The notes below the pieces were generated by a model. The model had not been told where the DNA came from. It saw only the letters and a program-made list of their open reading frames with translations, and did no database searches. This document shows positions 5,680 through 63,153 of a stretch of 64,000 nucleotides of DNA, piece after piece. Numbering within the stretch: position 1 is the stretch's first letter; the number at the start of each line of letters is the position of its first letter. Made by a program: the position numbers and the translations under genes. Source of the stretch: Protoeuglena noctilucae (lineage: Eukaryota); NCBI GenBank assembly GCA_958009085.1, contig OY253678.1, positions 682,001-746,000 of the forward strand. The letters run 5' to 3'.

Positions 5680-7872
<2,193 letters not shown>

Positions 7873-8229: not shown

Positions 8230-11200
8230 ATGAAGGGCGAGGTGGACTCGGAGGATGAGGACTTCGTCTTCTTCGGGACGCCCATCGAGGCACGTTTGGC
8301 ACCCTCGCGAGTTGCTTTGCCCGGGCCGACGCCCTGATCCGCGCACATGCACCCCCGGGCCCTCGCTTGCAGGTGGAAGAGAAGGAAGCAGGCCCGTCGC
8401 AGCGGAAGCAGGGACTAGGCTTTTGGCGCGACCCCGCGTCAACAAAGGTGATCATGCGCCGCCCTCGCCTCAGGGCAGGCTTTTCAGGCCGCGCGCGATG
8501 GGTGCCATGATCTCAGGATGCAACTGCGGCCTCTCAGCACCATCGCAGGCCCTGCCGGTGTGGGAGCAGACCCCGGTCGATGCCGAGGGACGTCGGCGCT
8601 TCCACGGCGCCTTCACGGGCGGTTTCAGCGCCGGCTTCTTCAACACTGTCGGCAGTGCGGAGGGATGGCAACCCAAGACCTTCGTATCCTCCCGCAGCAA
8701 CCGGCAGAGCGTCCAGCAGGTGCGCCCGGCGCTCGCCCTCGCTTCCCTCTGTCCCGCGCCCGTGCCCGCTCATGGTCCCGCTCTCCGCCCTCCCTCAGCG
8801 TGTTGAGGATTTCTACGACGAGGATGAGCTCGCCGAGTCCAGGAAGACCACGCTGGTGGCCAAGGTGAAGCAGCGGCGACGCCATCGCGTGCGTTCGCTG
8901 GGATCGCAACCCTTTCCACCTCGCGACCAGCGCCGGGAGATCGAGAGTGGGGAGCGCATTTCCGTGCGGGTCGATGATGACCAAAACTTGATCTTATCTA
9001 TGAATGGCTTTGCCTCCGGCCAGCGCCAGCGACCCGTGCTGCCGGACAGGTTGAAGCATTGTGTTGACTGTGCCTTACTGAGACCCATCGCACGCGTGCG
9101 TTCTCTTCCCATGCAATCCCCTTGCACGCTCGTTGAGACCCCGCACGTTGTCAGTGTCGCCGGTTCCCTCGCCAGCTGTGTGCCTTGCTTGCAGAACGAC
9201 TACGACACCTTCGGCTCTCACGCGGCGGAGGCGGCCCTGCGCGACGCGGACCGCGACCGCCAAGACCGGGACGATGGGCTGGACCTGCTGCCCCGGGAGC
9301 TGCTGCAGCCCGTGGCCGACTCGGTCGGCATTCGACTCCTCAACAAGGCGCGTGCAAGGGAACCATTGCCGGGCGTCGACGCGGATGCGCTCGCTCTGCT
9401 ATTGCCATGTTAGTGCTCTGCTGTTCAGACCGCCAAGACGGCACACAGCAGCGCCCTGCGACGCGCCCCTATCATCACGTGGGCCGGCAAGGTTTCTCAC
9501 TGGCATGGGCTTGGGATGGTTAACAATCACCCCACGTTGTTGTTGTGCTGCAGTTGGGATGGAGGCAGGGCAAGGGCATTGGGTTCTTGGATGACGAGGG
9601 AACGATGGGGGCCGACAACACGCCCCTGTGCCTCCTGCCACCTAAGACCAACACGCACGGGCTGGGGTACGACCCGTTCAAGGGAATGGAGGATTTCCGG
9701 CGAATGAAGGCCGAGAGGGACGCGGAGAAGCAACGGCGGCCCGAGCGGAGGCGGCGCGAGCGGGGCATGGCGTTTGGGACTGGGGTGTTTGATGAGGACG
9801 ACACCCTGGGGGGCGAACTGGACGACTACGTCGTTGAGGGTGAGTGGTGGCCTCCGCGAAGAGCCGAGGAGATGAGGTGGTGGCTGGCGGTTGCGTGACA
9901 CATGGTTCGATCTCGTACTTTAGACAGCGGACGCCCTTGCGTCGGCTAAGCGCTGGCACGCGTTGTGGCGCGTCTTGTCGGTGCTCTTTGGTCAGTCGGC
10001 TCGGCTCGGCTCCCAGGTCTGCGTGGCGTTGGCTTGCGTGCAGACGTGGAGGGTGCCGTGCCCAGGGTCATGGACCGGGGCCGGTTCGCCTTCTTTGAGC
10101 AAGACGATGGGTCCGACGAGGAGGGGCCTTCGGGGCGCAAGCGGGCCCGGCCGCTGCGGCTGGGGGGTGGCGAGGAGCGCAAGATGATTCTGGCGCCGGG
10201 CATGACGGACCCCTCGCACAGGTGCGTGGGGAGGTAGCAGATGCTGTTGGGGCTACAGTCCACTCTTGGTTCACTCTTGCGCCGCAGCACGATCTCTCCT
10301 ATGCACCGTGCCCTTCCGTGCCCTTCCATGCCATGTGCCGGTGCTCCACACCCGTTAGCACCTTACTCTGCGTTCTTGACTCACGCCCCCTGGCTGCGAC
10401 TTTCCCCAGGGGCCCGCGCCCGTCCTTCATCGCCGGCTTCACGGTGGCCTCCACCGCCGTGCGGCCCAAGTGGTATCCGCCCCCCAAGGTCCCCTCCTGG
10501 TTCGTCCCGAAGCACGTTTTCGACGACGTGTTCGAGCCCCCGCCTCTGCCCCTTTCCAAGGCCATGGCCCCTAAGGTCCCGCCCCCGCCCGCCCCGTCCG
10601 ACTCGTCTCTGCGCCAGGCCATCGAGACCCTCGCGCCGTACATCGCCCGCAACGGGCCCCAGTTCGAGGCCCTTGTGGCCCAGAGGCAGGGAGGCCAGCC
10701 CGCGTTCGCCTTCCTGTGCGGGGGCGAGGGCGCCGCCTACTTCCGGTGGCGCGTGCAGACGCTGCGCGCGTCGCAGATGGCCGTCGCTGGCATCGGGCGC
10801 CGGGCGGAGCCGCTGGTTGCGCCGGAGGAGGCGGAAGGGGCGGGGGAGGCCGGGCGGGTTGGGACGGCGGCGACGGCGGCAGCGGCGGCGGCGCTCGAGC
10901 CGCCCAGGGCTCCCGAGGTGCCAATGGGTCCAGGGCACCGGGGAGCGCCGGTGGCCATCGCGAGCATCGCGGAGGGCGACCGCGTGCGGCTCAAGCTGGA
11001 TCTGGGGAGCAGATTCCGCTCGGCGGGCGCCCAGGCAAGGCGCACGGCACAGCACTGTATAGCACGAAGCACACGAATCGATGCGATGCTCGTTTGATGA
11101 AGCCCATGCAATCTGTCGCACGAGCTTGTTGGAAGTGAACAAGGCTGCGACTGATTGAGTCAGGCCCGTTTCCCGTTCCCGCAGCCCACGGCGCTGCCCG

Positions 11201-15111: not shown

Positions 15112-18100
15112 ATGGCGAAGAAACGCGCACCCAAGGCGGGTGCCCGCCGGCGAAATCCTGCAGAGGAGCTCCCTTCCGACATGTACGATGAGGTGGACGC
15201 CTTCCACAAGCAGCGGGACCGGGTGGCGCTGGACAAGGAGGTGGGGCGGCAGCCACGGTCGCGTGGAGCCGCCGCGCGCAGGCCGGGGGGGCAGAAGCGC
15301 TCTATCCTGTTACATCAATTTTGGAAGCACATGCCACACTGCTCTGGGACCTCCGCCATGCGCTGCCGGGACGCGGCGGGCCTGCTGACTGCCGGCGGCC
15401 CGCCCTACTGCAGGAGGACGCGCCGGACACGGACGACTCGGACGCGGAGGTGCCGGTATTGGGCGTAGAGAGCTTGGAGGAATCGGAGGACGACATGGAG
15501 GACGTGGACGACATCGACAGCGACGGGGACGAGGAGCTGCAGGCGATGAAGGCGCAGGCGCGAGCCCTGAAGCAGCGCCTGATGATTGCGAAGGGAGCGC
15601 GCGGCGGGGAATCGGACGAGGAGGCGGGGGACGACGCCCGCGCGGCGCTGCGAGAGCGCCTGTGGGGCGCAAGCAAGCGCAACTACTATGGCGGCAACGG
15701 TGAGGAGTCCTTTTGGGGTGAAACCTTCACCTGGCCGCACAGTCGCGCGCTTCGTCGGCTTCATTCGTTGCTGCTAGCCGTTGCTTGCCAGGCTCCCGAG
15801 TGGCTTGTCGTGTCATGACGACCTATCTGCGACGCTCAGTGGTGCCTGGCTGCGATTGCAGAGAGTGCCAGCGACGAGGAGGCGGAGGAGGAGGAAGAGA
15901 AGGAGGCGCGGAGGCTTCAGAAGGAGAGGGCGGCTGGCATCCGTCCCGAGGTGCGTGCGGCGTGGGGCCCACAGTCCTGAGGGGCACCCCGGCTGCCCAC
16001 CGATGCCAGCACTTGACTCTGTGCCTTGCCCCGCGCAGGACCTGGGCCTCTCATCGGGCGACGAGGACGAGAGCAGCGGGGAGGGAGAGGACGAGGATGG
16101 CGAAGACGCCGCACTGGGGGAGCGGGTGCCCAAGGGCGCGCAGGTCAACAGGGTGGCGTCCGAGACGGGCGCTGCAATGACCGAGGAACAGATGCGGGAG
16201 GCGGTGCGGCGGGACGCGCCCGAGGTGAGACTGACTGATTGAGCACATACGTGTGTACCCACGCAAAGGCGTGCAGGCGTGCCTCTGTCGGCGCCAGGGA
16301 CCGACGCCTGAGGTGACCGCCTTTGGCCTCTTCACTGCAACGCCCGGCTTGCCCCCCTTGCAGCTCGAGTCACTGGTGGGGGAGCTGAAGGGCGCGCTGC
16401 AGGAGGTGCGGGGCCGCGTGGCGCCACTGCTGTCGCTGGTCAGGGAAGGCAAGCTGGCGACCGACCAAGGCATCTCGTACCTCGAAGCCAAGCACCTGCT
16501 GCTCCTCACCTACTGCAGCTACCTGGGTGAGATGTAGTGTTACAGTAATGCCGTCTGCGAGCACACGCCGCATCCGCACCTCGCGCCACGCCAGTGCCGT
16601 TGCTGTGACCGTGAGCTGCCCACTGCAGCATCTTTCGCACGCACCCATCCACTCCCTTGATACCCCCGCTCCCTTGATACCCCGCCCGTTGTGCTCCACC
16701 CCCTTGTCGCAACCCAACCCACTCCGCATTCCCTTCCTTCGCATCCGCCTCATTTCATGTCTCCTTTCCACCCCCAGTCTTCTTCCTACTCCTCAAGGCC
16801 GAGGGCATCCCCGTCAAAGACCACCCTGTGGTGCAGCGCCTGGTGGAGACGCGGCTGTACTTGGAAAAGATCCGTCCGATCGATAAGAAGCTCAAGTATC
16901 AGATCGACAAGCTCCTGAAGGCGGCCGAGCGGGCGGGGGGCGCTGACGAGGGGCGGCGGGCGGGTGGGGCCGGTGGGGAGGACGATGACTTGCAGCTGAG
17001 GCCCAATATCGGTGAGATTGCGACGTGGGGTTCCAGGTCGGTAGTACAACAGCATGTCTTGAGTTTAAGCGTGGTGGGTTGCCAGGCAGGGAGCTGGGGC
17101 GTAGTCGGTGGAGGGTTGGAATGCGCGCACGGTGGCCCAAACCGCACCAGCAAAAGGGTGTGAGCTTATGTTGCTGAGGCCAGCGCAGTGAACTTGACTG
17201 CGTTGCGTCTGGTGCTCGCAGATGCGATGGTGACAGACGATGCGAGGGCAGCGGGCGATGGGGATGGGCCAGTGGGGGCATACAAGGCGCCGAAGCTGCG
17301 GGAGGTGGCCATGGCGGAGGACATGGAGAGGTCGCGGCGAAAGAAGGAAGAGCGGGCCGCCCGGGAGCTCCGGAGGAGGTGAGGGGGGGCGGGGGTGGGC
17401 GTTGCTGCTGTGGTGAAGCAGGTGAGGGAGCCGGGAAGGTGTTGTGGGAACTATCGCGGACCATTAGTGTTCTTCTTACGCATGAAGCAGTGGAATATGA
17501 CCTGGGATGGCTAGTGAGATGACTGGCTACGTCACTGCTGGTCGCGACTGGGCACCCACGCAGGGCGGCGAGGTCGGAGCTGGTGCGGGAGCTGGAGGCG
17601 GAGATCACAGGAGCGCCTCGGGAGGTGCGGGACGAGGTTCCGGGGTCGGACACCGCGGTGGCGGAGCGGGAGAGGCAGCGCATTGCGGAGCGGGAGCGGG
17701 TGGAAGAGGAGCTCATGACGCGCGTGCACCTGAGCAAGGAGGAGCGCAGGCGCATGCGTGTGGCGCGGACGGCGGGGCTGTCGGGCGCGGACATCGTGGA
17801 CGACATTGCCGACGAGGTGGTAGGGCTGGCGGCCGGGTTCGGGGGCGACGAGGAGGACGGGTCGGATGGGGGCGCGGGCGACGGGTCACTCCGGAAGCGG
17901 CTGTCCCAGGTGTGGATGCGGGGACCATGCGCGCTGTTCTTGGCGGGCTTGGACGGACGGCCAGCAGCGGTGGGGCTTGGGTGTGGCTACGATGTGGTAC
18001 CTTGACAGAGCTGCCCCGGGTTTGTCATCGCCGGCCATCGTATGCGTCTCGGTGCTCGTTTGTGCAGAAGTATGGTGGGGAGGTGCGCGGGGTGCGAGGG

Positions 18101-18680
18101 CCGCGGTCGGGGGACGACGACGCCCCAGGCCGGGCGACCCTGGGAGAGCGGCGCGCACAGCACGACCGGAAGCGGGCGGCGCAGCGGGCAGACGAAGAGC
18201 CCGACGAGGAAGGCAAGTTGGACCGATGGACCGATTCTCGCCCACTGGCATGCTACGTGCTGGCACATGCTGGTGTGTGCAGGGCCATGCACCTCACGCA
18301 CGCACACCCTGTCGACCCCCGCAGGTCCCGGCGCGTGGGGCGAGGAGGACGACTTCTACAAGGCGGCCAAGAGCGCATCGAAGAAGCGGCGGGAGGACCA
18401 CAAGGCATCGCTGGCGACACCCGCGTACCCACCTTTGGAGGAGCCGGTGGTGCGGGGGGCGCGGGCGGTGACGACGGAGATCATGCAGAATCCGGGGCTG
18501 ACGGCGCACCGGAGGCGGGACGTCAAGGCTCCTCGGAAGAAGAACCGGACCAAGTTCGAGAAAGCCCTGGTGCGGCACAAGGGGCAGGCGCCGGCGATGC
18601 GCGAGCGCACGGCGGGGTACGGGGGAGAGGCCACGGGCATCAAATCGACCGTCACCAAGTCGCGCAAGTTCAAGGGATAG
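15112..18680 (+). CDS. UTP3: SSU processome Sas10/Utp3 protein containing an Lcp5/neuroguidin-like central region
   Basis: 'MYDEVDAFHKQRD', 'WGASKRNYYGG', Sas10/Utp3/C1D domain 'ISYLEAKHLLLLTYC...HPVVQRLVETRLYLEKIRPIDKKLKYQIDKLL', and Sas10 C-terminal 'GLTAHRRRDVKAPRKKNRTKFEKA...YGGEATGIKSTVTKSRKF'. Confidence 0.88.
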
Positions 18681-38670: not shown

Positions 38671-39375
38671 GCATCGGAGATGACTTTGTGCTTTACCAGT
38701 GCATGTTCCTGAATCTCACTATGGAGGCATGGTAGCGGACGGAGCCGGGCCGGCCAGGCTCGGCCTCCGCGTCCAGGGGCGCCACGGCCCCGTCCGACAT
38801 CTTTGTGTCCTGTGGAAGCCGGCAGCGGTCCACCGCGAGAGTGGGATGCACGCTCTGCAACTCGCGAGCCTGCCATTGAGACGTTGCTGCGGACAGAACG
38901 CTGGAAAGCTGTCAGGCGCGCCCTGGGGACCCCGTCGCAGGTCGCAAGGAAAACAGCCGACCTGTCTTCAGGAGGCGACTGGAGGAAGACCCTGCGCCGG
39001 GCAGCGCCATGCTACGAAGATTAGAATGCTGGTGCAGGGCCGCAGAGGTCGGGCCGGGATCCCAGGAGGGAACGCCCACGTGCTGACCCCTCCTCAGGCC
39101 AGCCGGCGCGCGGACAGGAGTTCCACTAGTAACGAATAAAGATGTCTAGCATTTTCAGACAATATGCGCCCTATCGACCGCTAGTTTTGCTCAACGGCGG
39201 TTCATCGAATGGATCGGCATTCGGGGCTCTCGCGCCTTCCGAGCCCCCCTGAGTCGCGCTAGTCCTCGCCCTCGTTTCGATTACGATGCATTCAATTCAT
39301 CGCTAGCAGGACAAGGTCGCTAGCGAGCGGATGGGCACGCCACAGCACACGACACTTCTGGCACCTAGGGCACAC

Positions 39376-41327
39376 CTAGAACAGCCCGAAGAGCTTCTTC
39401 TGCGACCGCATCGCAGGAGCTCCGCCAAGTTTCCAGCCCTCGGAGCCCAGGAGGTCGACGAGCGCGACCACCACGTTGTCCTGCGTCTTCCGCTGCAGGG
39501 CCTTGTCCACCAGCTGCTCCGCCACCTCCTGCGGGCTCACGCCCCGCTTGAGGAGGCCCCGGCAGAACTGGACGGCCTGCTGGCTCGAGAAGACGTCCCA
39601 GAGCCCGTCGCTGGCGAGGATGAGGAACTCGTCCGACTCCGTGTCCATCCCGACCTCTGCGGAACAGAAGGGCCGATATTGTCAGCGGCACCATTACGCC
39701 AGCACAGTCACAAGCGAGAACGTTTACGCCGGGCCATCGCAACAGCGCGTCCTCACCGGTGACGTCAGGCAGGGCCGTCACGGGGTCTGCTTTGAAGTCC
39801 ATCTTTTCCGCCGTCTCCTGGTCCCAGCTCCCCCACTCGACCCCCGCCTTCTGCAAACGTCGAAAGCGAGATACGTCACGGAAGCTCTGCGTACCTGTGG
39901 GACGGCGAGCGCCGTCGCGCGAAGCGTGATGCGCACTCGCCTTCAAATAGGTCAACCCCTCGCCCTTCCACTCCCAGTCCCCGAAAGATCGCGACACCGC
40001 AATGACGCCGCAGAGGCGCCCGTCGTACACCCACGCCCCCGTCTCCTCGACGCGCTTTACCTCCCGCACCGCAGCCTCCGACACCCCCGACAGCCTGGGG
40101 CGAGAGCACCCACAGCAAGGCGTCAAGTTTCAGCGGCTGCTGACACGCAGCGACGTCATGGACTGATTCGGAAGTCTCTCGCCTGTGCTCCACCGTGAGG
40201 TCCACGGAGGCCCCTGCCCGACACAGCACGCATTTCGAGTCCCCGACGTTGGCCACGACCATCTTGCCCTCTCCCACGAGCAGCACCGTCGCCGTGGACC
40301 CCGCCTCCTTCGCCGCCTCGCCATCCACGCTCGTCTCCAGATACTGCGACCCCAACAACAGCGCTCGCATCCGCATCGGCATCGGCTCGCGCCGTGTGGC
40401 CATCGCGTCAACCGTAACCAACCCACCGGGCGCACCTTTATCACTTCCTTGTCGAACTCCCGGAATATTCCCTGCATTTGGGCCTCGGACCCGCTCGGTT
40501 GCCCGTTCACCGCCTTTCCCTCCTCGCCCTTCTCCTTCGATCCCCCTCGTGGCCCACCGTCGGGAAACGTCTTCCCCGAAGCATCTGCAGCCGAACGCGA
40601 GAGTCGCCTCTCGGGCCCGGAAAGGTGCCATTGCCCTGGCACGCGCGGCCCGCTAGGCACCCACCGCCCGTCAAGCCGCGGTCGCATGCCTCGTGCAGGT
40701 GGTCCCGCAGGAACGTCGCGACCTGGTCTCCCCCGTGTCCGTCGAACACGCCAGCGTAGAAGTAGCCACTGGAGAGCGCCCGCACGGCCCCGCAGTCCTC
40801 CATCGTCTCTCTCTGCAAGCGCAGTCCCGTGGGTGAGGGCGAGGCAGTGGCCTGAAGCCCCGCGGCCAAACCACACCGCGTCCGCGATGCACGGCGACGC
40901 TGGAGAGCGAGTGTCTGTCGCGATGGGAGTCGCGGGGCGCGCGCACGCGGCAGCGCGCTGGCGCAGCATTCTTCGCATCGCACCCGACCCTGCGCCATCG
41001 CCAGGCCCGAGGCGAACGCCTTGCTGGCGTCCTGTGCGGCCACGCTCTCATGTGTCTGGGATGACGAGCATGCGAAACTCCTCCGCGCTCTCCTTGGCTC
41101 GGACCTGCGTGGACAACCCACGCGCGGTCGGCCGGGTCGGAAGGGGGACAAGACGGGCCCCCTGCGCGCACCTCCGGCCGCTTTGGAGGCGAACTAAGAC
41201 GTCGCATTTGGCACGCCCGGAGAGACCGCTCGGGCAGCCGCTGCAGTTGCCCAGATTCGCACTCTGCCCCTCAAGCGACTCACCGGTTGACCCCTAAGCC
41301 CCCAGGCGCCACCCTTAGCCTAATCAT
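39376..41327 (-). CDS. PPH1: Thylakoid PP2C phosphatase PPH1/TAP38 (LHCII dephosphorylation, state transitions)
   Basis: PP2C motifs 'QGR|RETMED', 'GVFDGHGG', 'GSTAT', 'ANVGDS', 'LILASDGLWD', 'QDN'. TAP38-like flap 'EVKRVEETGAWVYDGRLCGVIAVSRSFGD...KAGVEWGSW...DFKADPV'. Confidence 0.85.
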
Positions 41328-49774: not shown

Positions 49775-52171
49775 ATGTCGGAGCCTTCGAGCCAAGGCAG
49801 TGGCGGTCCTCCGAACACCGGGGGCCGCACAGTCTCAGACGACCTTCTAGACAGGATCTCTTTGCACGGGATTGATGTGAGGGCCGCTTCCCCGGCCCTG
49901 CGTGGCTGTGGGAGTTCACGGTACCACGGCACGCGCCGCCCCCTTGTCCTCGCTCGCAGGTCTGCTTTAGCAACCCGGGAACCTCCGAAATGTGGATCGT
50001 AGCCGCACTCACACGACGGAGCGACATCCGGCCTGTTCTGTGCCTCCACGAAAGCGTGGCTGCCGGCGCGGCCGATGGCTTTGCGCGAATGACGGGGCGC
50101 CCTGCCATGACGCTCCTGCACCTCGGGGCGGGGCTCTCCAACGCCTTAACGAGCCTCCACAACGCCAAGCGAGCGCGGCAGCCCGTGCTGGTGCGGCGGA
50201 GCGCCTCGCCGCGCCCACCAACCTTGATGGCCACGCCTGCGAGTCACGCTCTCTTCGCTCACCCGCCCCCAGAACCTCGTCGGCGACATGTCGACGTGGC
50301 ACAAGAAAGCAGACGCGCCGCTAGATTCCGACATGGAGGCCATCGCTGGCGCTGTCGGGTCCTGCTGCACCGTGCGGACCGTGGACGACTTGCTGGTGAG
50401 CTGTGATTGCTTAACCATGCAAGGCCTTCAGCAGATGCGCGCAATACAATCACAACACACTCAGATACGACCACCTGTGACGTGCAGAAGTCGGTTGACG
50501 CGGCGTTTGAGGCGATGAAGCACCCAACGGGGGACAGCACGACCGCGAGTCACGTGCACACGCTCATTGTCCCGCACGACTTCACCTGGGCGCCCAGCCC
50601 CCCCGAGAACGCGGCGCGCATGAGACAGGTCGACGCGCACCCTGCCGGCGCGCAGCAGGAGGAGTCCTGTCTGCCGGGCGTTGGGCACCGGGCACTCCGC
50701 ACGCAGCGTGGCGACGGCACGGGCACCGGCGACCACACCCTCCCCGTGACGGGCGGGCAGGCGGACTTCATCGATGCGTGCGCCCGAGCCATGCAGGACG
50801 CCCCGGGCAAGCTCTGCATCATGGTGGGCGGGAGCGCCCTGGAGGTGGACGGGGACGACGCGCCTCTGATCTTGGCGGGCAAGATTGCCGCCGCAGTGAA
50901 CGCCGAGCTCTTCTGCGAGCCATTCCCTGCGCGCCTCGACCGCGGCGTGGGGCTCCCGCGGCTCAAGCGCATGCCATACTTCCCAGAGGTGTGCTGCGGT
51001 ATCGAATCGCACGGCCTGACGCTGCATGAGCTGAGCAGAGGCAGCCGGGGGCTCCGAGTCGTCTGCTTGGTCTTGGAAATGCCCATGCCTGCTCCTGACT
51101 CATGGGGTTGTGCATCTGCTGCCGCTCGCAGGCTGCGAGGGAGGCATTCTCGCGTTTCGAGGTGGTGGTGCTGGTGGACACGCGGAGGCCAGTGGCCATG
51201 TTCGGGTACCCCGGCGGCGAGTCCATGATCCTGTCGTGCAAGGAGGAGAACCTGTGGGAGATCGACGCGCAGGCGAGCGGCTGCGAGGACAACCTCTGCA
51301 CTGGCTTATGCGCTCCGTCTCGACTGCTATCCTCTTCCTGCTGCCGAGACACGCCAGCGGATACGGCAGACCATCTCGTCTCGCGGGCGTGCAGGGCGCC
51401 GACCTGCGGAGTGCGTTGGCGGCACTGGCCCAGAAGGTCGATGCTCATGCCATCGTGCCGGGGGTCAACTGTGGTGGCCTCTTCGTCACTAAGGAGAAGC
51501 AGCCCCCGCTGCCCGAGGGACGGCTGTCCCCGCCGTCGCTGTGCCGGTGCCTGGCGGCGCTGCAGAGGGAGGGCGACATCATCGTCGACGAGTCGCTGAC
51601 CACGGGAGGAAGCTACTGGGCCGCAGCCGAGGCGGCGCCGCGCTTCTCTCAGCTCTTTCTGACGGGCGGGGCGATTGGAAACGGGCCGTGCCTGTCCGTC
51701 GGCGCCGCCATGGGGTGCCCCGACCGGCGCGTGATCAACTTCCAGGCAGACGGGTCACTCTGCTACAGCCTCCCGGCGCTGCATTCAGAGGCCCGCGAGA
51801 AGCTGAACGTCTTGACGATCGTCTGCAGCAACCGCAGCTACCACATCCTCGAGGTGGAGACCGCGCAGCAGAAGATCCCAGGGGCCGCCAAGAGCGCCAA
51901 GGTGACTGGGTGCCAGCACTGGGTGACAAGACGCGTAGCACACGGTGGCGGTTGCCGAGGCGCACAGGGACCCGTGCTAGTACCTCATCCCCCGCAGCCA
52001 CTCACGGAATTGAGCCAACCCGACATCGCCTTTGTTTCGATCGCGCGGGGGCTCGGGGTTCACCGGGGCGGCCGGGCGAGCACGTGCGACGAGTTCGTCC
52101 GGCTGTGGCGCGAGGCGGAGAAGGCGATGAGCGAGGAGCCGGGGCCGTTCATCATCCAGGCGGACCTCTGA
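49775..52171 (+). CDS. Thiamine-pyrophosphate enzyme, bacterial acetolactate-synthase-like family
   Basis: 'VCFSNPGTSEM', 'CLHESVAAGAADGFARMTGRPAMTLLHLGAGL', 'DAPLDSD', 'IIVDESLTTG', 'LTGGAIGNG', TPP motif 'QADGSLCYS...CSNRSYHIL'. Confidence 0.88.
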
Positions 52172-54305: not shown

Positions 54306-57144
54306 CTACTGCGCCTGCTCCCGTGCGCCCCTCTGGCGCCCTGCTTTCTCCGTCGGGGCCACGTGGACCCGCACGTCGCACGTCCACCCCTGCTCCAGCA
54401 CCTTGAACGCGGCCTCTTCCATTTCGCGCGACGTCCTGCGTGCGGAATGGGATGTCATTTGGTAGTCCAGAGTTGTTACCCACGTCACCCTGCAAGCCTT
54501 TTTTGGCATCTACAATACAGCCACGCTCGCCTGAGGGCGTCCTGCAGCTTCCGCTGCTTGACCGCCGCACTCGGTTGCCTCTGCCGCTGCTGCGCCCCGC
54601 CCTGCTTCTTCCGCGCCAACCACTCCCGGAACCGCTGCTCGTTCTCCTCCTGTTTCTGGCGCTCCTCCTCCAAGAAGTCATCTGCGTGTCAAGGGCACGT
54701 GCCGCACGAGCTAGCGACCGGGCGCAGCAATGGGGTGAGGGCCGGCCGGCCGCTGGCGCGCGGCAGCACGCACCGATCGTCTGCTTGTCCCCCGCCTCCC
54801 GCGCCTTCAGGCCCCGCTCCTTGCGCCGCTCGGCGTCCTGCGCCAGCCACGCCTGGAACGCCGCCTGGTTCCTCTGCTTGCGCTCCGCCAGCTCCTCCTG
54901 GGAAAAGGCACCAACACGCCCATTAGCGGCGCTCCAATGTAAAGCTAAGTTTGCCGCAGAAGATGCGGGCGTGACACGCTGTCGAGAATAGCCACGCATG
55001 CTGTGCTGGCCCCTGCCCAACCCGGCACCAGTCCCCAGGGCATGCTCTCCCTGCACCAGTCAGCACCCCGAAATCACCTCCGCCTTCTTCTGCTCCTTTT
55101 TCTTCGACAGCCGCTCCATCCGCGCCTTCTGCGCCGCTGCCTCCTTCTCCTCGAGCCAAGTCAGCACCGAAGCCTTGGTCTCCTCCAAATGACGTGCGGC
55201 GCGGATGCGGGCCGCCACCTGCAAGCGCAACCGACACTGGCACACGCCTGGTGAGTTGCGCTACCCATGAGACCCCCAACGGCCGTGAGTCACGACGTGT
55301 AGGCCTTCCCAAACTCGTCAGCTGCCCATGCGCTCATGCCAATGCACGACCCCATGCCCACCCGCCCCAGCCCCTCGCCTGCGGACATCCCTCGGCCGCC
55401 GCCTGCGCCTCGAGCTCATCCATGCGGGCCTGGTCCCCGATTTCGATCGCGATGGACGCCTGCAGGTCCAGCTGCGCCGCGTGGACCGCCCGCTCCGCAC
55501 GCCGGTACTGCTCTGACGTCTCCTCGTCCAGCTCCACTTCGTCGCCGTCCGCTTGGCCCGCCACCGTGCACGCGATGGCGTCCAGGGTGCGAGGGAGGAT
55601 GTCGGCGTGGTGGAAGCGACACGCGTACGACACCTCGTTGGCGAGGGAGTTGAGGTACACGACCGCGTGCGCGAGCTCCACGTAGCGGTTGGTCTCCGGG
55701 ACACCCATGCGCTGCGGGGACGTTCGATAGTTACAGAGGTCAGTGCCAGACACGCCGCAGCATGCGTGAACGTCACCGAGGTTCGTCACCCAGGACTCAC
55801 CTGAGCTGCCGCGAGGAGCTGCCCGACGGCGCTCATGTCGAGATCGATGACCCGCATCGCCAGCTTGCGCTCCAGGTTGGCCACGGTCGACGTCCGGCTC
55901 CCAGGCGAACCCTCCGCCTCCACCTGCAGAAGGGCGCAGCTTAGACGCGCTCCCGGACGCGACGCACCCACTTGCGCCCTCACACAGCATCAGGCCAGCC
56001 CTCAAGGTCTCACCTTGGAGCCCGACGCGCGGCCCACGTCGCGCATGGGCTTGGGGCGCTTGCCGCGCTTGCCCTTGCCATGCCCGTGGGACCCCCGGGT
56101 CGTCGCGTGTGGCGAGGCGTCCAGAGACTCGGCCACCGGGGGAGCGGGGCTCGACTGGCTGGCAAGTGGCTCGTCCACAGCGCCCCAGTCACGTGGTGCA
56201 CCTCCATCTGCGGCTTGCCCGGCCCCCGGAGGCCTCCGCGGCGACATCTGCACCGTCACAGAGTTGTCCTCCGCCACGCCGATGTCCACCTGGACGCCGT
56301 GGGAGTAGTCGTGGCCGTGCTCCGTGCTGCTGTCGCCCCTCCCGCCGACGCCACCCTCCGGCCCCGCCTCCTCGGCCGGTGCTGCCGACGCGTCGCCCCC
56401 CGCTGCGTCCGCGCCGGCGTCTGCGCCTCCAGAGTTCAAGTCCCCGCGGTCCAGCGCCCCTCGCGCAGCTGCGGATGGCGTGTGGGAGCCACGTTCTGGG
56501 CCTCGCCAAGGCAGCGGAGACTGCGATGAGGAGGCCAACATGTGTCATATTGTGCCCACTCACCGAGCTGGATGATGGCCGCAGCTTCCGCTCTGCTCAT
56601 ATCTCGTGCAATGTCCCGTTGTGTCGTAGCTTCTCCGGCGCCGGTTCCAGCTTCCTCCGCGTCGCGGACGTGGGCTTCCTCGACCAGCGTGTCCAAGGTG
56701 CTCGGCGGGTCGCTTTGTCCCTCCGCTGGAGGTGGTGGTCCGTAGCTCGTCTCCGCTAAATCGGCTTCGGGGGTGCGAGCGCCTTCAGCGACCTGCTCTT
56801 GCGACACCTCGCCCTTCGAGGCCCCTGCTGGCTCTTTCGCGAGGTCTTCGGGCGTATCCTGGGGTCGCGGAAACGCGCGACTCGATGGAGTGAAAGACAC
56901 GGTAAAGATGTGTCAGAAAGCGCATGCAGTTCGGCCAGGCTAGCGGGCATCGACGCGCAACGGCCTCCAGCCTGCACATGTCGCGGCACACCTTCGCGGC
57001 CGCATCGCCCTCGCGGCCCTCGTCTGCCGCGGTGTGCGCCTCCGCCATCATATCATTGTGACCATCCTCTGCAGGCGCAGAAGTCTCAGCGAGGACCCCG
57101 TCCCCGCCCTCGCTGGGCGGAGGCGGATCGGTAGGCTCAGACAT
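54306..57144 (-). CDS. Acidic N-terminal, coiled-coil protein with CCDC34/CCDC181-like 'F..WL..K' repeats
   Basis: Multi-exon. 'TKASVLTWLEEKE', 'NQAAFQAWLAQD', 'NEQRFREWLARKK'. Confidence 0.6.
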
Positions 57145-57267
57145 GGGCACCCAGCGCCCAACGATGCACTACCGTGCTACTCAGACCGAGCAAAGTGAGC
57201 TCGCCTCTTCTCTCCGCGAGATGTTTTTCACAGCTTCCGCTCTGTCAGCGTCACTGACGCAGTGATG

Positions 57268-57283
57268 CATCATCGGGAAAACC
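57268..57283 (+). repeat. Left terminal inverted repeat
   Basis: CATCATCGGGAAAACC; imperfect similarity to the right end extends to ~57308. Confidence 0.9.
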
Positions 57284-57302
57284 CGGCGATTTGACGTCAC
57301 TC

Positions 57303-57420
57303 GGATCAGAAGGATCGCGGGAATCACTGGATTCATCCCAGTGATCCCCGGGAATCGCCGGGATCATCCCCGTGATCCCGGCGATCCCCGCCACTGCCGC
57401 AGTGATCCCAGCGATCCCGG
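57303..57420. repeat. Left subterminal repeat array (GGGATCA/GGAATC and TGATCCC units, both orientations)
   Basis: ggatca, ggatcg, ggaatca, gtgatcccc, ggaatcg, ggatcatccc, gtgatccc, cgatcccc, gtgatccc, cgatccc within ~120 bp. Confidence 0.85.
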
Positions 57421-57962
57421 GCCGCGGCCCTGACGCGCGTGCGCGCCCCCGCGTTTGCTCAGGGGGCTCGAGAGGAGGCGGAGAGACCGCACATTTGCTA
57501 GTTGGTGCTAATGACTGCCTCGGAGGCCCCTCTCGCGTCCTAAAGCTTGCTCCAGCATGCAGACGGGGGCCGTCGACGCATCCGGGGTCCGCTTCCCCTG
57601 CGCCGCCGCTGTTCAACGTGAGATGTCCATATCTATGCGATGAGCGGGAGCTCGCGGGCTCGCCGGGCCCCCGGGGGCGCCGGGGAGGTCCCCGTGCTCG
57701 ACCAGGCCTACCGCCGCCGCGGCCGCGATCGGGCACGCAGCGCTTGGCCTATGGATTGAGGTGACCTAAATCTCGCTAGCTGCGGCGCCTTTGCCGGCTA
57801 CGCCGCACGGAGGTGGCTGCTGCATGGGAGGTGAGCCGTCCCCGCCGTCATGGCGCTGCGGATGGGGGCGCGGGGCTGGCTTCGGAGAATTATCTCGATA
57901 CAGATGACATCGCCGGCGTCGGGGACCTGGCACCGCGAGCATCGGGGAGCTCCTGGGGTCAC

Positions 57963-60900
57963 CTACTCCTCGCCGCCGCTGGCGTGGTGCTCCCAGACCT
58001 GCTGCACGTGGCCGCAGTGAAGAAGCTTCCCAGCAACTTTCACGGCGTGAAGCTGCCGCCGAAGGTTGCGGAGGGGCACGCACTTCAGAGCCTCGCCCTC
58101 CGCAGGCTCCAGGAGCGACAGCTGGGGAGGCTGCAGCGCTCCCAGGTTGGTGTAGAACGACAAGCACTGGTTGGACAGGTACCTCAGGTCGCATGGGGCC
58201 CTGTGCACCGGGGCCACCAGGGCGCAGAGGAAGGTCCCGGCACCGGAGCTGGTCTTCGCCTCAACCCCGCACACGACCCTGCCCGTCTGCAGCGTGCCCC
58301 TGTCCGGGAGGTACTCGACGAAGGACAGGGTCTCGTCGGTGGCGACGATCCTGGCCCGGTCCCCGCTGGCCGTCCCGATCTCGACCGTGGAGGTCAGCGC
58401 GACCTCGCCCAAGACGTGGCAGGGAAGCCCCGCGCCCTTGAGGGCGTTCAGGAGGTCCGCCTTAGAAACGAAGTCTTCCGCGCGTCCCTCGCTGCACAGG
58501 TCGTTCTTCTTCAGGACGGTCTTCACGCCCTTCACTTGGTCCTCGGGCTGGGACGGGACCGGCTGCTCCGCCCTCGCCCGGCTCTTGATGACGGAGGCCG
58601 CCCTCTGAGAGATGACGCTGGTGCTCGCCTGCGACAGGGCTCGGGGGTCAGTCCAGCGCGGCTCAGCATGGCACGCGGGTCGAGCGCCGTGCGACCGCAT
58701 CGAGACGTGTGAGTCGCAAGAAACGCGTCCTGCGTGGGCTTCCCCGCGTCGCCTACGCTGGGCGGCGCTTCTTGCCTGTACCTGCACGTCGCCCTTGCCG
58801 TTCGTGCGCGCGTTGGCAATGGGCTTGTGCATGCGCTCGGCGTCGTTCATGCTGCCCAACATGATGGAGCCGTTCCTCGCCACCACTGCAGGGAAATGCG
58901 AAAGCGCGTGGCACTTCTGGCTGTTCTCGATCTTGCTGAAGAGGGGCTTCTCCGTGCGGACGATTTCGTGGCCACGCAGCAGCGTCTTGAGCACGACCTG
59001 CGGCGACACGGCAGCGACAAGGCTTCCAGAGTGAGTAAGGGGCAGCGAACGATGGGGCTGGTGTTGGAGAAGGCCTCACGTGGAGGACCTTATTCAGCTG
59101 CGCGTCCGCCGCCTGCGCCCCTGCGATGGTGGCGCTCTCCAGGGACCATTCGGCATAGAGCTGAAGGCATGCCAGGGCTACGGCCACGAGCCCAACCCTC
59201 TCGTCGTGCACGTCTTTGCTGCCCGTAGGCTCTGCAAGGGATGTGGTGGTGGGGAAACACTCCCGGGGTTCCCCGGCCCGCATCGCGATACCCGCAGCTC
59301 CTCCCGATGCCCTCGCAGCGCTGACTGTCGGCCTCGCCTCGAGAGAAGAGCTCGACGAGGGCGAAAGGCAGAGCTTGGATCAAGAACCTCGCCTCGTACG
59401 CCTTTATCTTCCCAAACGGGTCCACGAGGCTCAGCACGATATGGAAGGTCTCGCCCCACGGACGGGCGTGGATCCATGCCGGGGCCTGCGCTCCACCCAC
59501 ACGACGATGGACATGCCAGGTGAATACCGAGCAGCTGCGGCGCCACTGCAGGCAACGCACGCCATTGCCTGACCTGCAGCTCACCTTGGCATCCGCAATG
59601 ATCGATGCGAACGCAGCCAAGAGGGCGTTTGCCTTTGTCGCAGACTCTCCCGCTGCCGCGTTGTTGTAGAGGACGGTCAGTATGCAGAAGGGAACAGTCT
59701 TGCCCAACATTCCCAGTTCCACGGTGTGCATGGGGTCAGGTGCTTGGCCCTGATACAAGTCCGACCCGAACTCGTCCCAGTACGACAGGGCAGGAACCAC
59801 AGGATGAATTTTGCTCTCCCTGGCTTGTTCGTTGGCCCTGGCCGTCCCCACGTCCCTCCTCAAGCGCAGGATGTGCTGCACCTGGAGGCGATGCAGCGCG
59901 ACGGTGCGAGGCGTGCGGCAGTCATCCTGGAGGCACAGCGGGCACGACCTGACGGCCAGCGTGGACGAGTTGGCCATCATGTCGTTCAGCTGCGCCGCCA
60001 AGACGGGAAAGACGATGACTCTCCCGACGTCGGGGAGGGTCATCCACACCCCACCGGACCTCGCCACGCCAATCAGCTGCCGGTCCACGGCAGCCAGCCG
60101 CCGCTGGATGGCCTCTCTGTTGTTCAGGTCTGCCTGTGACCCCGGAGTGATCCCGGACACCTGCGGGGGCCTCGAGCGACAACTCATACACGCGGCGTGG
60201 TGGTGGACGTGTGGGCTGCAACGCCGGCAATCCTCCTCTCGCCTTCATGGACTCGACGGTGGCCACGGTTCGCGGCGTCCCTGTCCTCACGGCCTTGCAA
60301 GGCGACAGGAGGTGCATGTGGATGGGCGTCGTCGATGCGCCCTTGGTCATCTCCACCCCGTCGATGCTGTACGCGACGGGCACGAGGAGCAGCCGGGCGT
60401 GCAGCTCGGGGCGGACTTTGCCAGCGACAGCCTCGGCTATGTCGCTATACCCCTTCGCCCGGGAGAAGGTGAGCTTCTCGTGGATGCTGGGATGCGTCTC
60501 ATGTGGTCTCGCCCGCGCCTGGCGTGACCGTTCCCGTGCCTCGCTGAAGTCTCGCATCAACTTAACGAGCGTCTTGGGCTTGATCTGCTCCGCGTGCACC
60601 AGCATGTCCCTCAGCACCGTTATCGTTTGGTAGATGATGGTTGTGCTGCCCTCCTCTTGCAAAACCTGCAGGCCGTGCGTGCACTGGTTGGCGTCAGCCC
60701 CCTCGGCCGCGTCCGAGGCCCTCGACACAAGCGGCACCGCGGCGTGACGCACCTCGTACTGGCCATGGATGCTGTTGAGTGAGGTGTGGAACGTGCGGTG
60801 GGAGCGCCCGAGGTCGAGAAGGTCGTCGCGGATGTCGGGGCGCAGCTTCACGAAGCAATCGAAATGCGCTGCCGTCAGCGATGCCATGAACTGCGCCCCT

Positions 60901-61421
60901 GCTTCAAGTTGGCTCAGGTACTCATCGTCACTGTCCCTGCTCCTGGCCCGCCATGCCTCCAGGTCCTCCGGCAGCTTCAGCGGTTCGTACTCCCCGGGCG
61001 CAGGAAGGTAGGAGACTCCAGGAGCGTCCTCTTGGGGCGCATCATGCGCTCCGGCGCTCTCGGGCGGTTCACCCCTCTCCGAGTCAATGTCCACGTCCAT
61101 GTCCACGTCCGTGTCGGCGTAGTGGAGCCACGCGAGTCCTACATCTTCGCTCTCGCCATCACTGCCCGCAGCAACGTCCGCCGTCCCGTCTTCCTCCCGC
61201 AGTTCTTGGTCTGGTCCCGCGCTGGCGCTGTCGCGTGCCAGCCCGTCCGAGCCTCGCAGAGACGGAGAGACATAGTGTTCGTGTGGGGCGGCGGGGCGGG
61301 GTGCTTCCTGGCGGCTCTCCTCGCCATATCTCCAGCCCCACAGCGCAGGGCATCTTTGCTGATGCCGGGCGAGCTTGGCCGGGGTATCGAATTGCGTTCC
61401 ACACGCGTCGCATTCGAGCAT
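57963..61421 (-). CDS. Plavaka transposase with N-terminal C2H2 zinc finger (about 7 coding exons)
   Basis: 'CDACGTQFDTPAKLARHQQRC'; 'VPVAYSIDG...PIHMHL'; 'GVWMTLPD...VFPVLAAQLND...CPLC'; 'APDPMHTVELGM'; 'KCHALSHFPAVVARNGS...AERMHK'. Predicted introns 60666-60752, 60161-60242, 59486-59584, 59232-59337, 58998-59079 and 58629-58775 give an uninterrupted frame. Confidence 0.82.
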
Positions 61422-62681
61422 GGTGAGCTGCAGCGCAGGTTGCGATGCAGGGTTCAAGGCGGGCATGGTGAGGGCGTGGAAGCGGAGGTGAGGAAAGTCC
61501 AGCGCGCGCTCTGAGGGTCAGGCAGGCTCAGGGGTCGTCAGTCCTCCAGGCAAGCGGGGGTGGATTGCAGGGCTGCAGCGACAGCACCGCGCACAGGTGA
61601 GGCTCGGCGCTGCTGGTGCGAACAGCGCTGGATCATCGTCCCTCTCTAGGGTGAGAGTGCAGCCTGCTGCTGAGCCATCTGCGAGGTGTGCTGACGTGGC
61701 TGGGGAGGGGAGGGGCCAGCTCCCGTGAGGTGAGATGCAGCATACGCATGACTAGATCAGGTCGGACATTGTCGCTGTCCCCAAGGTGCGCGGTTGGTCT
61801 GCTGCGCTACCGGTGGGGTCTGCGACACGGTCAGGTGTGCAAGGGGGGGTTGGTTGGCTGGGAGGGACGAAGGGCTGGTCCGCCAGCGTGGTATCTCTGT
61901 ACTTGCTAACTGTACCTGGCACCGTGCCTGCACTCTCTCACCCCGAGACTGACTCTAACTTCGCCTAAAAAGCACGCAGGCGCACGTGCCACCTCGTCCC
62001 AAGTTCCGGCGCTGGTCGGGTGCTGGCCGGGCCCGCCATGGCTCGTCCGCCGACCCATGCCCCTTGTCTGTCGTCTGGCGTCCGCGGCGCCCCGCAGCGG
62101 TGGTCATCGACTCCTGGGGCGGCCGTCGGCACGGCGGAGTCGCGCACGCCACCATCTCCCGAGTGCCTGGCCCGAGTGCCGGAGCGCCGCTCCCCGATGG
62201 AGCGGCAGCGTCCGGAACAAGCGGTCGGTGCCTCTGGCGGTGGTCGCTGCGCGCTCCCGTCGCGCCTGCGGCCGCCCGAGTCCGGCTGCATGTGCGTGCA
62301 TGAGTGCGTTGCCTAGAGCGTCACGGATGGTCATGTAACCTCGGCGTAGGGATTGAAATACCAATAGCTACGCTAGGGAGCGATTACGGGCCGAACGGAG
62401 CCCCCCGGGCCGCGCGGGCCCCGGAGCGCGCGTGCCCAAAAGATGCGTCCGATCGCGATCAAGATAGGTCTGATCGCGGCCGAGAAGGAAGATAGGCGGC
62501 GGGATAGCCTCGGCTAACGCTTCCGGCGCCGCTGCGCTCCCGAGTGGGCCCCGCTCCCCGCGATCCCCGACCACGACGAAATGCCGCGAAACTGCTCCCA
62601 GCGGCCTCTCGCATCCCGGGTGCGCCGTGGCCGTAACCGCGCCGCGTAAAACGGCCTCCCCAGGGAGATCGGGCGCGCGGC

Positions 62682-62812
62682 TGGAATCACTGGGCTCAAT
62701 GAGGGTTTACATTACAGTCTGTGTCGTCAGTGGGATCACTGGGATGATCCCTCTGATACCCCGGGATCAGCGGGATGATCCCCACGATTCCTGGGTATCA
62801 CGGGGATGATCC
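62682..62812. repeat. Right subterminal repeat array
   Basis: ggaatcactggg, gggatcactgggatgatccc, tgatacccc, gggatcag, gggatgatcccc, cgattcc, gggtatcac, gggatgatcc; same unit as the left end. Confidence 0.85.
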
Positions 62813-62830
62813 TACTGACGCCAGACTCGC

Positions 62831-62846
62831 GGTTTTCCCGATGATG
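62831..62846 (-). repeat. Right terminal inverted repeat
   Basis: GGTTTTCCCGATGATG, the exact reverse complement of 57268-57283. Confidence 0.9.
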
Positions 62847-63153
62847 GGATGCTTAATGCTGGCGCTCCTCCTGTTGTCCCTTCGCGTATGTGTCAGCTTA
62901 GGGTTGGGGGCCGTGACAAACCCGTTCCTCGCACCGTACTTGTTCCCATTCACCGCCCCAGCCCCGGCTCGCACTGGCGAAGGCCGCTCGTGCCAAGAGC
63001 GGAAGGTTGCGCTTTCCTCCTGTGTCATTCTTGTCCGTGCCCATCCAATAGTCGAGGGGGAGGGGCTGCAGTGGGTCCCTGCGGGGCCCGCGCGGGGCAC
63101 ATGCAGGTCCGCAACTCACGGCTTTTCGGCCCGCCTCCGGTCGGGAGGGCGTG

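Follow-up and report, generated by a model that had tools for sequence, protein, structure and literature searches.

A probable Plavaka-type DNA transposon with many near-identical copies in a GC-rich marine eukaryote

Between positions 57268 and 62846 of the 64,000-nucleotide (nt) stretch of contig OY253678.1 analyzed here (the whole of this stretch being referred to as "the window"), there lies a compact element of ~5.6 kb, which is bounded by terminal inverted repeats (TIRs), carries mirrored subterminal repeat arrays and contains one split gene on the minus strand. We consider it to be a complete copy of a class II transposon that has one gene, is young and occurs in many copies; it would belong to the CMCT group (CACTA/EnSpm-Mirage-Chapaev-Transib), closest to Plavaka and having PlavakaB-type ends, and would put the probability of this reading at roughly 0.8.

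The element and its single gene

The features making up the element, starting with its ends and following the gene in the direction of its transcription, are these:

57268..57283, plus strand: left TIR as observed, 16 nt, CATCATCGGGAAAACC; the Plavaka-type core CATCGGGAAAACC begins at 57271
62831..62846, minus strand: right TIR as observed, 16 nt; last base of the Plavaka-type core at 62843
57284..57430, no strand assigned: left subterminal array, GGGATCA/TGATCCC motifs with a ~31-nt period; four GGGATCA and eight GGRATC
62670..62830, no strand assigned: right subterminal array, mirroring the left one; four GGGATCA and six GGRATC
61467..62669, minus strand: non-coding stretch of 1.2 kb from the right array to the start codon; presumed promoter and 5' untranslated region (UTR)
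60291..61466, minus strand: exon 1, 392 codons, ATG at 61466; C2HC-type finger, acidic stretch, SIDG (candidate D369)
59585..60160, minus strand: exon 2, 192 codons; second candidate Asp (LND, D452) and CPLC; GC content at third codon positions (GC3) of 0.80
59326..59485, minus strand: exon 3, with an uncertain 3' end (59326, 59338 or 59292)
59080..59231, minus strand: exon 4, from the spliced gene model and codon periodicity
58782..58997, minus strand: exon 5, HALSH (H-x3-H) and candidate Glu (AERMH, E743); GC3 of 0.90
57963..58628, minus strand: exon 6, the C-terminal 221 codons and a TAG stop

The two TIR arms (57268-57283 and 62831-62846) are 16 nt long each and 100% complementary to one another, just as the first-pass annotation of this DNA had it, and a search with the 16-mer allowing for up to three mismatches returned two matches in the 64-kb window, both being the arms themselves (0.26 expected; two matches were reached in 1 of 100 shuffles). 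With the arms taken as observed, the termini in the window read CATCATCGGG...CCCGATGATG, with CA..TG and, more fully, the CATCA..TGATG of PlavakaB. The subterminal arrays, whose mirrored arrangement had also been spotted at first pass, form 58-60-nt inverted arms with 78-81% pairing, a 25-nt subterminal unit recurs in them five times at 31-nt spacing (two on the left, three on the right), and the left and right element ends share 80% identity over 187 alignment columns. Ten GGGATCA heptamers were counted on both strands of the window, eight of which fall within two subterminal stretches of ~150 nt, one within the interior of the element and one within the other 58 kb of the window. By analogy, these subterminal GGGATCA repeats are probable transposase-binding sites.

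Three long minus-strand open frames can be joined via five introns (130, 99, 94, 82 and 153 nt) into six exons totaling 2946 nt, i.e., 981 codons plus a stop, without any internal stop codon, so that the stop-free spliced open reading frame (ORF) claimed earlier is borne out as a gene model. Intron donors are, in order, GTGAGG, GTGAGC, GTCAGC, GTGAGG and GTACAG, and the acceptors are CAG throughout; for intron 3 the donor is ambiguous, as GTCAGC at 59326, GCGAGG at 59338 and GTATCG at 59292 would each preserve the frame. Coding periodicity is seen in all six exons (GC content at second codon positions, GC2, of 0.39-0.48 and GC3 of 0.78-0.90; exon 1 has 0.69/0.48/0.78 by codon position) and in none of the five proposed introns (GC2 of 0.64-0.78), including the two introns that are in frame and free of stops.

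Along the predicted protein, SIDG is found at residue 367, LND at 450, CPLC at 465, APD at 532, HALSH at 718 and AERMH at 741, which means that the catalytic-looking motifs and the CxxC pair listed at first pass (SIDG, LND, APD, AERMH and CPLC) are all in place, with CPLC and HALSH located between D452 and E743. Judging by this layout, D369, D452 and E743 may be the catalytic residues. The N-terminal finger had been called a C2H2 finger; a finger-like motif is indeed there, but it reads C-x2-C-x12-H-x3-C (C2HC) and matches Pfam zf-C2H2 below the cut-off (E = 0.06, 14.2 bits versus 25.2). Exon 6 matched no known domain in Pfam. Neither a Pfam family in its ORFs nor codon periodicity was found in the non-coding stretch 61467-62669, the other 17 ORFs inside the element likewise lack a Pfam family at E ≤ 0.1 (TET/JBP genes and any other cargo being absent), and no Rfam match was found in the element.

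Where the element ends

We infer the exact ends of the element, and the length of the target-site duplication along with them, from the junctions of its copies and from a comparison with fungal PlavakaB elements, and two models have to be weighed, the candidate duplications of which are as follows (no strand applies):

57269..57270: left copy of the candidate 2-bp duplication AT (preferred model)
62844..62845: right copy of the candidate 2-bp duplication AT (preferred model)
57264..57266: left copy of the alternative 3-bp duplication GAT (model of the first-pass annotation; unpaired G at 57267 and 62847)
62848..62850: right copy of the alternative 3-bp duplication GAT (same model)

The fungal comparison rests on the supplement of PMC12730594, where 17 PlavakaB consensus sequences are given by their opening bases and insertions are shown with their flanks; the counts were made by eye. 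These termini read CATC, then a variable base or two, then G or C and AAAAC (PMC12730594), and the printed examples of their duplications directly adjoin CATC (AA, GG, TG, AT, CAG, CTA; PMC12730594). The same source, published in December 2025, gives CATCA..TGATG as PlavakaB ends and 2-3 bp as the length of the duplication (PMC12730594), which means that CATCA-type termini, taken at first pass to newly define the end structure of a family, had already been described for fungi. When aligned with those printed termini, the 13-mer from 57271, CATCGGGAAAACC, agrees with PlavakaB-1_RuGr (CATCAGGAAAACC) in 12 of 13 bases and with PlavakaB-1_PaIn in 11 of 13, AAAAC being equally far from the end; position 5 of this inner register is G, as in PlavakaB-1_AuCo, whereas the register from 57268 agrees with PlavakaB-1_RuGr in 6 of 13 bases.

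The flanks of the window copy point in the same direction, as AT faces AT next to 57271/62843, the only register having a perfect duplication directly beside a CATC end, while next to 57268/62846 one finds ATG versus GGA, or TG versus GG, and no duplication. Junctions of other copies fit this in part: among the six left junctions (the window included), CAT is present in four, one differs at 57268-57269 and one (from organism B) at 57270, and among the seven right junctions AT is present in all, ATGG in five, and two differ at 62846. In runs X9 and X10, the match of the collapsed repeat contigs breaks off at 57271. Such junction variation would be unexpected inside a true TIR for copies that are otherwise ~99.9% alike. 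As AT is its own reverse complement, an AT duplication would add two bases to the inverted repeat as it appears, and the third base pair of the apparent TIR (C..G) would then belong to the target sequence. Going by these sequence comparisons, we would put it at about even odds that the true element spans 57271-62843 and has the 13-bp TIR CATCGGGAAAACC along with a 2-bp AT duplication.

Several observations weigh against this placement. It requires a marked preference for AT as the target in a genome of 67% GC (four of the six left junctions and all seven right ones have AT), an extra G is common to five of the seven right and three of the six left junctions, and the GATGC found on either side of the window copy is better accounted for by a GAT(G) duplication. 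Moreover, the junctions were read from short-word contigs clipped by the aligner, with unpaired flanks, and the X13 junction may duplicate an X2 junction; the loose-end consensus of paired contigs (agreement of 0.62-0.67) was unusable for pairing left flanks with right ones.

The placement proposed at first pass, namely ends at 57268-62846 (or 57267-62847) with a true 16-bp TIR and a GAT or GATG duplication, most of the weight within it being on the 3-bp GAT form, is somewhat less probable than ours. The repeat is perfect; CATCA is the terminus published for PlavakaB, and a 3-bp duplication would be normal in PlavakaB and EnSpm (both as described in PMC12730594); CAT recurs at four of the six left and ATG at five of the seven right junctions, and the extra G recurs as counted above. 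GATG does flank the copy on both sides (57264-57267 and 62848-62851), a configuration having a chance probability of P = 0.006 (0.006-0.022 for the exact GAT(G) forms), yet P rises to 0.08 once a direct repeat of at least 3 bp is allowed for over six comparable configurations, and the flanking GATG alone is therefore weak evidence. What has stood of that claim is the flanking repeat, and what is in doubt is its fit to the TIR, as the GAT(G) copies adjoin the 16-bp arms only if the element ended in G..G, a pair that is not complementary, or carried an additional G on one side (62847, which separates the right arm from the right GATG), and directly beside CATCA..TGATG there is no duplication at all. 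Furthermore, 4 of the 13 junctions vary inside the supposed TIR of copies otherwise ~99.9% identical, and AAAAC would be situated three bases farther from the end than in the 17 printed fungal PlavakaB termini (by eye).

Two further placements were considered and given up. One has asymmetric ends (57268..62843) and an ATG duplication of 3 bp, but the left flanks vary from copy to copy and the right one hardly does; the other has a 3-bp duplication beside 57271/62843, where CAT and ATG are not direct repeats. End models other than AT or GAT/GATG seem quite improbable altogether. The original target would read ...GTGATGCATGGGATGC... under the 2-bp AT model and ...CAGTGATGCTTAATG... under the GAT/GATG one.

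Copies, mobility and family affinity

The element is multi-copy and young. The product of its exon 1 belongs to a protein cluster (90% identity) of 28 members from public assemblies, one ORF product of the family is recorded on 55 contigs, and the members, which differ by single residues, frameshifts or truncations, are found on large contigs of at least seven sizes. Part of the stretch is contained in 19 of the 24 listed public runs (marine metagenomes, marine metatranscriptome libraries and four coded organisms), 14 of which contain at least half of the sampled words. In the DNA run X2, word depth is ~355-375 over the element versus ~15 over both flanks (a rough ratio of ~25, which is not a copy number), and nine X2 contigs pass from the element ends into DNA unlike that flanking the element in the window, within the rest of which blastn found no other copy or fragment of the element. 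Yet another X2 contig, at a flank-like depth of 14.6, joins 58390 to 61650 and is a non-autonomous derivative of the family with a 3259-bp internal deletion. Most of the transposase gene is gone from this copy, which also differs by 7 other letters in 117, i.e., is more diverged. Many near-identical dispersed copies imply very recent movement, and the earlier description of an autonomous-looking, TIR-bounded, single-gene DNA transposon is supported by the TIR, the arrays, the one gene and the many copies.

Compared with the sequence common to all four runs, the window copy differs at six positions, one of which (59441 in exon 3) changes Gln to His, other family members having Q. The other five private substitutions (61514, 61598, 61783, 61908 and 61969) all lie within 456 bp upstream of the start codon. 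A contig of the RNA-library run X13 has two bases fewer at 62622, being either a variant copy or an error (depth of 8.65).

We infer present-day mobility and splicing from the near-identity of the copies and from a frame that is open across six exons with coding periodicity, and it seems plausible, on sequence grounds, that the element is potentially active. That the copy looks intact while its family is immobile, whether silenced or defective (owing to the Gln-to-His change in exon 3 or a mis-predicted intron), is a doubtful alternative, which would nevertheless agree with a number of observations: the private non-synonymous change at 59441, the atypical (GTCAGC) or ambiguous donor of intron 3, the frameshifts or truncations in several members (e.g., P0014 and P0006), and the outcome of the checks suggested at first pass. 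Neither an empty-site contig joining both flanks nor a strain-specific insertion was seen among the contigs of four runs, and the two RNA-library runs (X10 and X13) showed no intron-skipping joints, their contigs covering the element unspliced (DNA carry-over being possible, this does not imply transcription). Contigs lose rare variants, so the absence of empty-site or spliced forms carries little weight, and the near-identical dispersed copies, together with the open, periodic frame, speak against immobility.

As for the family affinity, it is suggested by several converging lines, each of which is individually weak. The introns split the Plavaka domain, and Pfam was run exon by exon: PF18759 (Plavaka) is the only family matched by exon 2 (E = 0.0072), its profile positions 198-317 of 325 aligning with exon residues 33-152, i.e., protein residues 425-544, including D452 and CPLC, and it was matched by the sister fragment P0016 as well (E = 0.0083). 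In the ESM Atlas, the clusters nearest to exons 2-3 are Plavaka (score of 0.93, 155 shared features, template-modeling (TM) score of 0.52-0.55), and so is the cluster nearest to residues 175-392 of exon 1 (0.90, 153 features). The layout of the CMCT clade, described in PMC12730594 as CxxC...HxxxH between the second Asp and the Glu, is found here too, as CPLC and HALSH lie between LND and AERMH, and is accompanied by CA..TG ends and candidate duplications of 2-4 bp. Thus qualified, the Plavaka identity asserted at first pass stands as far as a relationship to the CACTA/Plavaka group is concerned, and the Pfam Plavaka test proper fell short (16.0 bits, the gathering score being 26.3).

The points to be held against our reading should be gathered here. 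The PF18759 match is below the gathering score and confined to exon 2, exon 1 having no Plavaka match in Pfam at E ≤ 10, and the unspliced long frames gave a weak zinc finger only. By the calibration of the tool, ESM Atlas scores of 0.90-0.93 with ~155 features are a lead and not a proof. The D/D/E assignment is a candidate one made by motif layout, and the clade placement is provisional. A phmmer search of the 791-residue P0014 against 1.84 billion representatives returned four proteins at E ≤ 0.001, none of which is a true relative from outside the family (two belong to the family itself and two are spurious), and word-seeded searches with exon 1 and exon 2 through 5.8 billion proteins (E ≤ 10) found the element's own family only. 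The two spurious matches were rejected as relatives, since P0017 is a tandem-repeat protein aligned to the read-through of intron 2, and P0018 is a bacterial Ig/cadherin-repeat protein aligned to the acidic stretch. Exon 2 had no meaningful phmmer match among the Protein Data Bank (PDB) sequences (best E = 0.15, a designed coiled coil), an AlphaFold2 model of exon 2-intron 2-exon 3 (278 residues, single sequence) was unusable (mean predicted local distance difference test score, pLDDT, of 38; predicted TM score, pTM, of 0.26), and scans of JGI metagenome contigs yielded 0 loci with a both-termini pattern that does match both ends in the window, and 96 pattern matches but 0 relatives when protein-seeded.

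On a side note, the prokaryote-style gene calling employed in public collections has split the transposase into intron-reading "proteins" (P0001-P0016; 514, 356, 296 and 791 residues among others), and searches with such pieces can catch artefacts, P0017 matching an intron-derived peptide being an example.

Were our reading correct, the sole minus-strand gene would give rise, via its six exons, to a transposase of ~981 residues, whose N-terminal zinc finger and adjoining region would bind the GGGATCA repeats within ~150 nt of each end, so that, by analogy, the two element ends might become paired. A core of the RNase-H-like type (candidates D369, D452 and E743), presumably braced by a zinc site made up of C465/C468 and H718/H722 in a RAG1/Transib-type layout, would then cut at the CATC...GATG termini, and the excised element would be inserted, again by analogy, via a short staggered cut of 2-3 nt. 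AT would be duplicated within a CATG-like target, leaving the outer CAT/ATG of the 16-bp repeat as target DNA.

A bolder proposition, which we put forward tentatively and hold to be more doubtful than not, is that with this element a branch of Plavaka begins that is marine-algal and has diverged deeply, its transposase having drifted too far for sequence searches to recognize, and which has kept the fungal PlavakaB terminal motif CATCNGGAAAACC, has acquired a strict AT (CATG) target and is still moving in wild marine populations.

A placement within the CMCT clade but outside Plavaka, be it as a divergent EnSpm/CACTA element or as a separate undescribed lineage with a superficial likeness, is rather unlikely. 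It would be in keeping with the sub-threshold Pfam score, an exon 1 without a match and the lack of any relative detected by phmmer, as well as with the Transposase_21 (CACTA) clusters that the ESM Atlas also gives for exons 2-3 (0.89, TM score of 0.46), and some Plavaka-like fungal elements had been classed as EnSpm, as described in PMC12730594. The termini, though, are not CACTA or CAC..GTG, no exon has a Transposase_21 (PF02992) match at E ≤ 10, Plavaka came out as the top-scoring family in three separate tests (Pfam once, the ESM Atlas twice), and the terminal 13-mer is near-identical to the printed fungal PlavakaB ends.

That this is a domesticated transposase gene retained by the host, as an open frame with host-like introns and codon bias might make one think, is extremely improbable and is ruled out by the many near-identical copies with differing flanks and the deletion derivative, on top of the intact TIRs and subterminal arrays.

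Genomic setting, significance and known systems

Some 120 bp from the left end of the element there is an open frame on the minus strand (56785-57145, ATG at 57145-57143, MSEPTDPPPP...), and, given this distance, the insertion would have landed in what is presumably the promoter or 5' UTR of the neighboring gene; RNA-library contigs cover 56300-56709. The 134 long ORFs elsewhere in the window include ordinary nuclear gene pieces only (Sas10, Surp, DUF1604, PP2C, aminotransferase and a thiamine pyrophosphate (TPP) enzyme):

8234-11094, plus strand: DUF1604 and Surp, intron-split; probably one G-patch/SURP splicing-factor gene
18006-18677, plus strand: Sas10 C-terminal domain, intron-split nuclear gene
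39368-40652, minus strand: PP2C phosphatase, intron-split nuclear gene
5985-6864, minus strand: class I/II aminotransferase, intron-split nuclear gene
51035-52168, plus strand: IlvX-like TPP enzyme, intron-split; closest named relatives 42-46% identical

The best named relatives of the TPP enzyme come from Parachlorella (46%), Diplonema (46%), Auxenochlorella (43%) and Chrysophaeum (42%), which is to say that two chlorophytes (43-46%) stand side by side with a diplonemid (46%) and a pelagophyte (42%), and the host lineage, taken at first pass for green-algal, is undecided as judged from this one gene.

Outside fungi there are as yet few full-length, near-identical Plavaka-type copies of which both ends are defined, and the element, being compact and free of cargo, can serve the lineage as a reference from a marine, GC-rich eukaryote, as well as a testable case of target-site choice. 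It also hints at the PlavakaB terminal motif being conserved across kingdoms and the transposase sequence not. On the practical side, with a ~25-fold excess of depth, the family will break assemblies and pass for host genes in annotation, a confusion that is already visible in public collections, where its ORFs were called in prokaryote style. Should the divergent-branch proposition hold true, the way in which the ends are recognized in this clade would predate the divergence of fungi from algae and would have been kept ever since, and for mutagenesis in the host the element would suggest itself as a tool.

Among the systems known, EnSpm/CACTA elements share with this one the probable clade, a short TIR with dense subterminal arrays and the catalytic layout (the residues being candidates here), but the ends of the window element are CATC..GATG and not CACTA, and it lacks a Transposase_21 match. 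The subterminal repeats of EnSpm/CACTA are binding sites of TnpA, and maize En/Spm makes two products, TnpA and TnpD, as opposed to the one gene seen here. A KDZ assignment (Kyakuja, Dileera, Zisupton) does not fit, there being neither a match to KDZ-family Pfam models at E ≤ 10 on any exon nor, at the element ends, an 8-bp flanking repeat of the Zisupton type. ESTA, an EnSpm-like group with TA duplications described in PMC12730594, indicates that fixed dinucleotide targets occur in the clade, the candidate here being AT instead of TA. With RAG1/Transib the element shares the CxxC...Hx3-4H...E arrangement as given in PMC12730594, but phmmer detected no sequence match of exon 2 to any solved structure (PDB sequences).

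The closest likeness is to the fungal PlavakaB elements of Agaricomycotina, which, as far as they are printed in PMC12730594, have CATC(A)...(T)GATG termini with a G-rich step and AAAAC at equal spacing, short duplications of 2-3 bp (a candidate feature here) and a transposase in which CxxC and Hx3H follow the second Asp and precede the Glu, to which the weak PF18759 similarity of the window transposase may be added. The differences are that the window host is a GC-rich marine eukaryote and not a fungus, that the element is only ~5.6 kb long and has neither a second gene nor TET/JBP, that its protein is too divergent for the Pfam threshold or for any fungal phmmer relative, and that it may have a strict AT/CATG target, whereas the printed fungal flanks vary (AA, GG, TG, AT, CAG, CTA).

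Plavaka, which owes its name to work on fungi, is no longer the mostly fungal affair that the first-pass annotation had taken it for: active EnSpm-Plavaka families are described in the green alga Auxenochlorella (bioRxiv 10.1101/2025.02.07.637104), Plavaka candidates are reported in chlorophytes, streptophyte algae and red algae (PMC13519894), and red seaweeds are described as harboring giant Plavaka families of 17-19 kb with three accessory genes (bioRxiv 10.1101/2025.02.11.637652). Compared by these descriptions only, the window element resembles them as a Plavaka-type cut-and-paste element, some of the algal ones being reported as potentially active with polymorphic insertions, and differs from the giant red-algal ones in having no accessory genes. 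Plavaka in algae and, going by the printed termini, CATCA-type ends are thus already known; notable in the window element is the combination of a compact, cargo-free and apparently intact structure with a very divergent transposase and a PlavakaB-like terminal motif.

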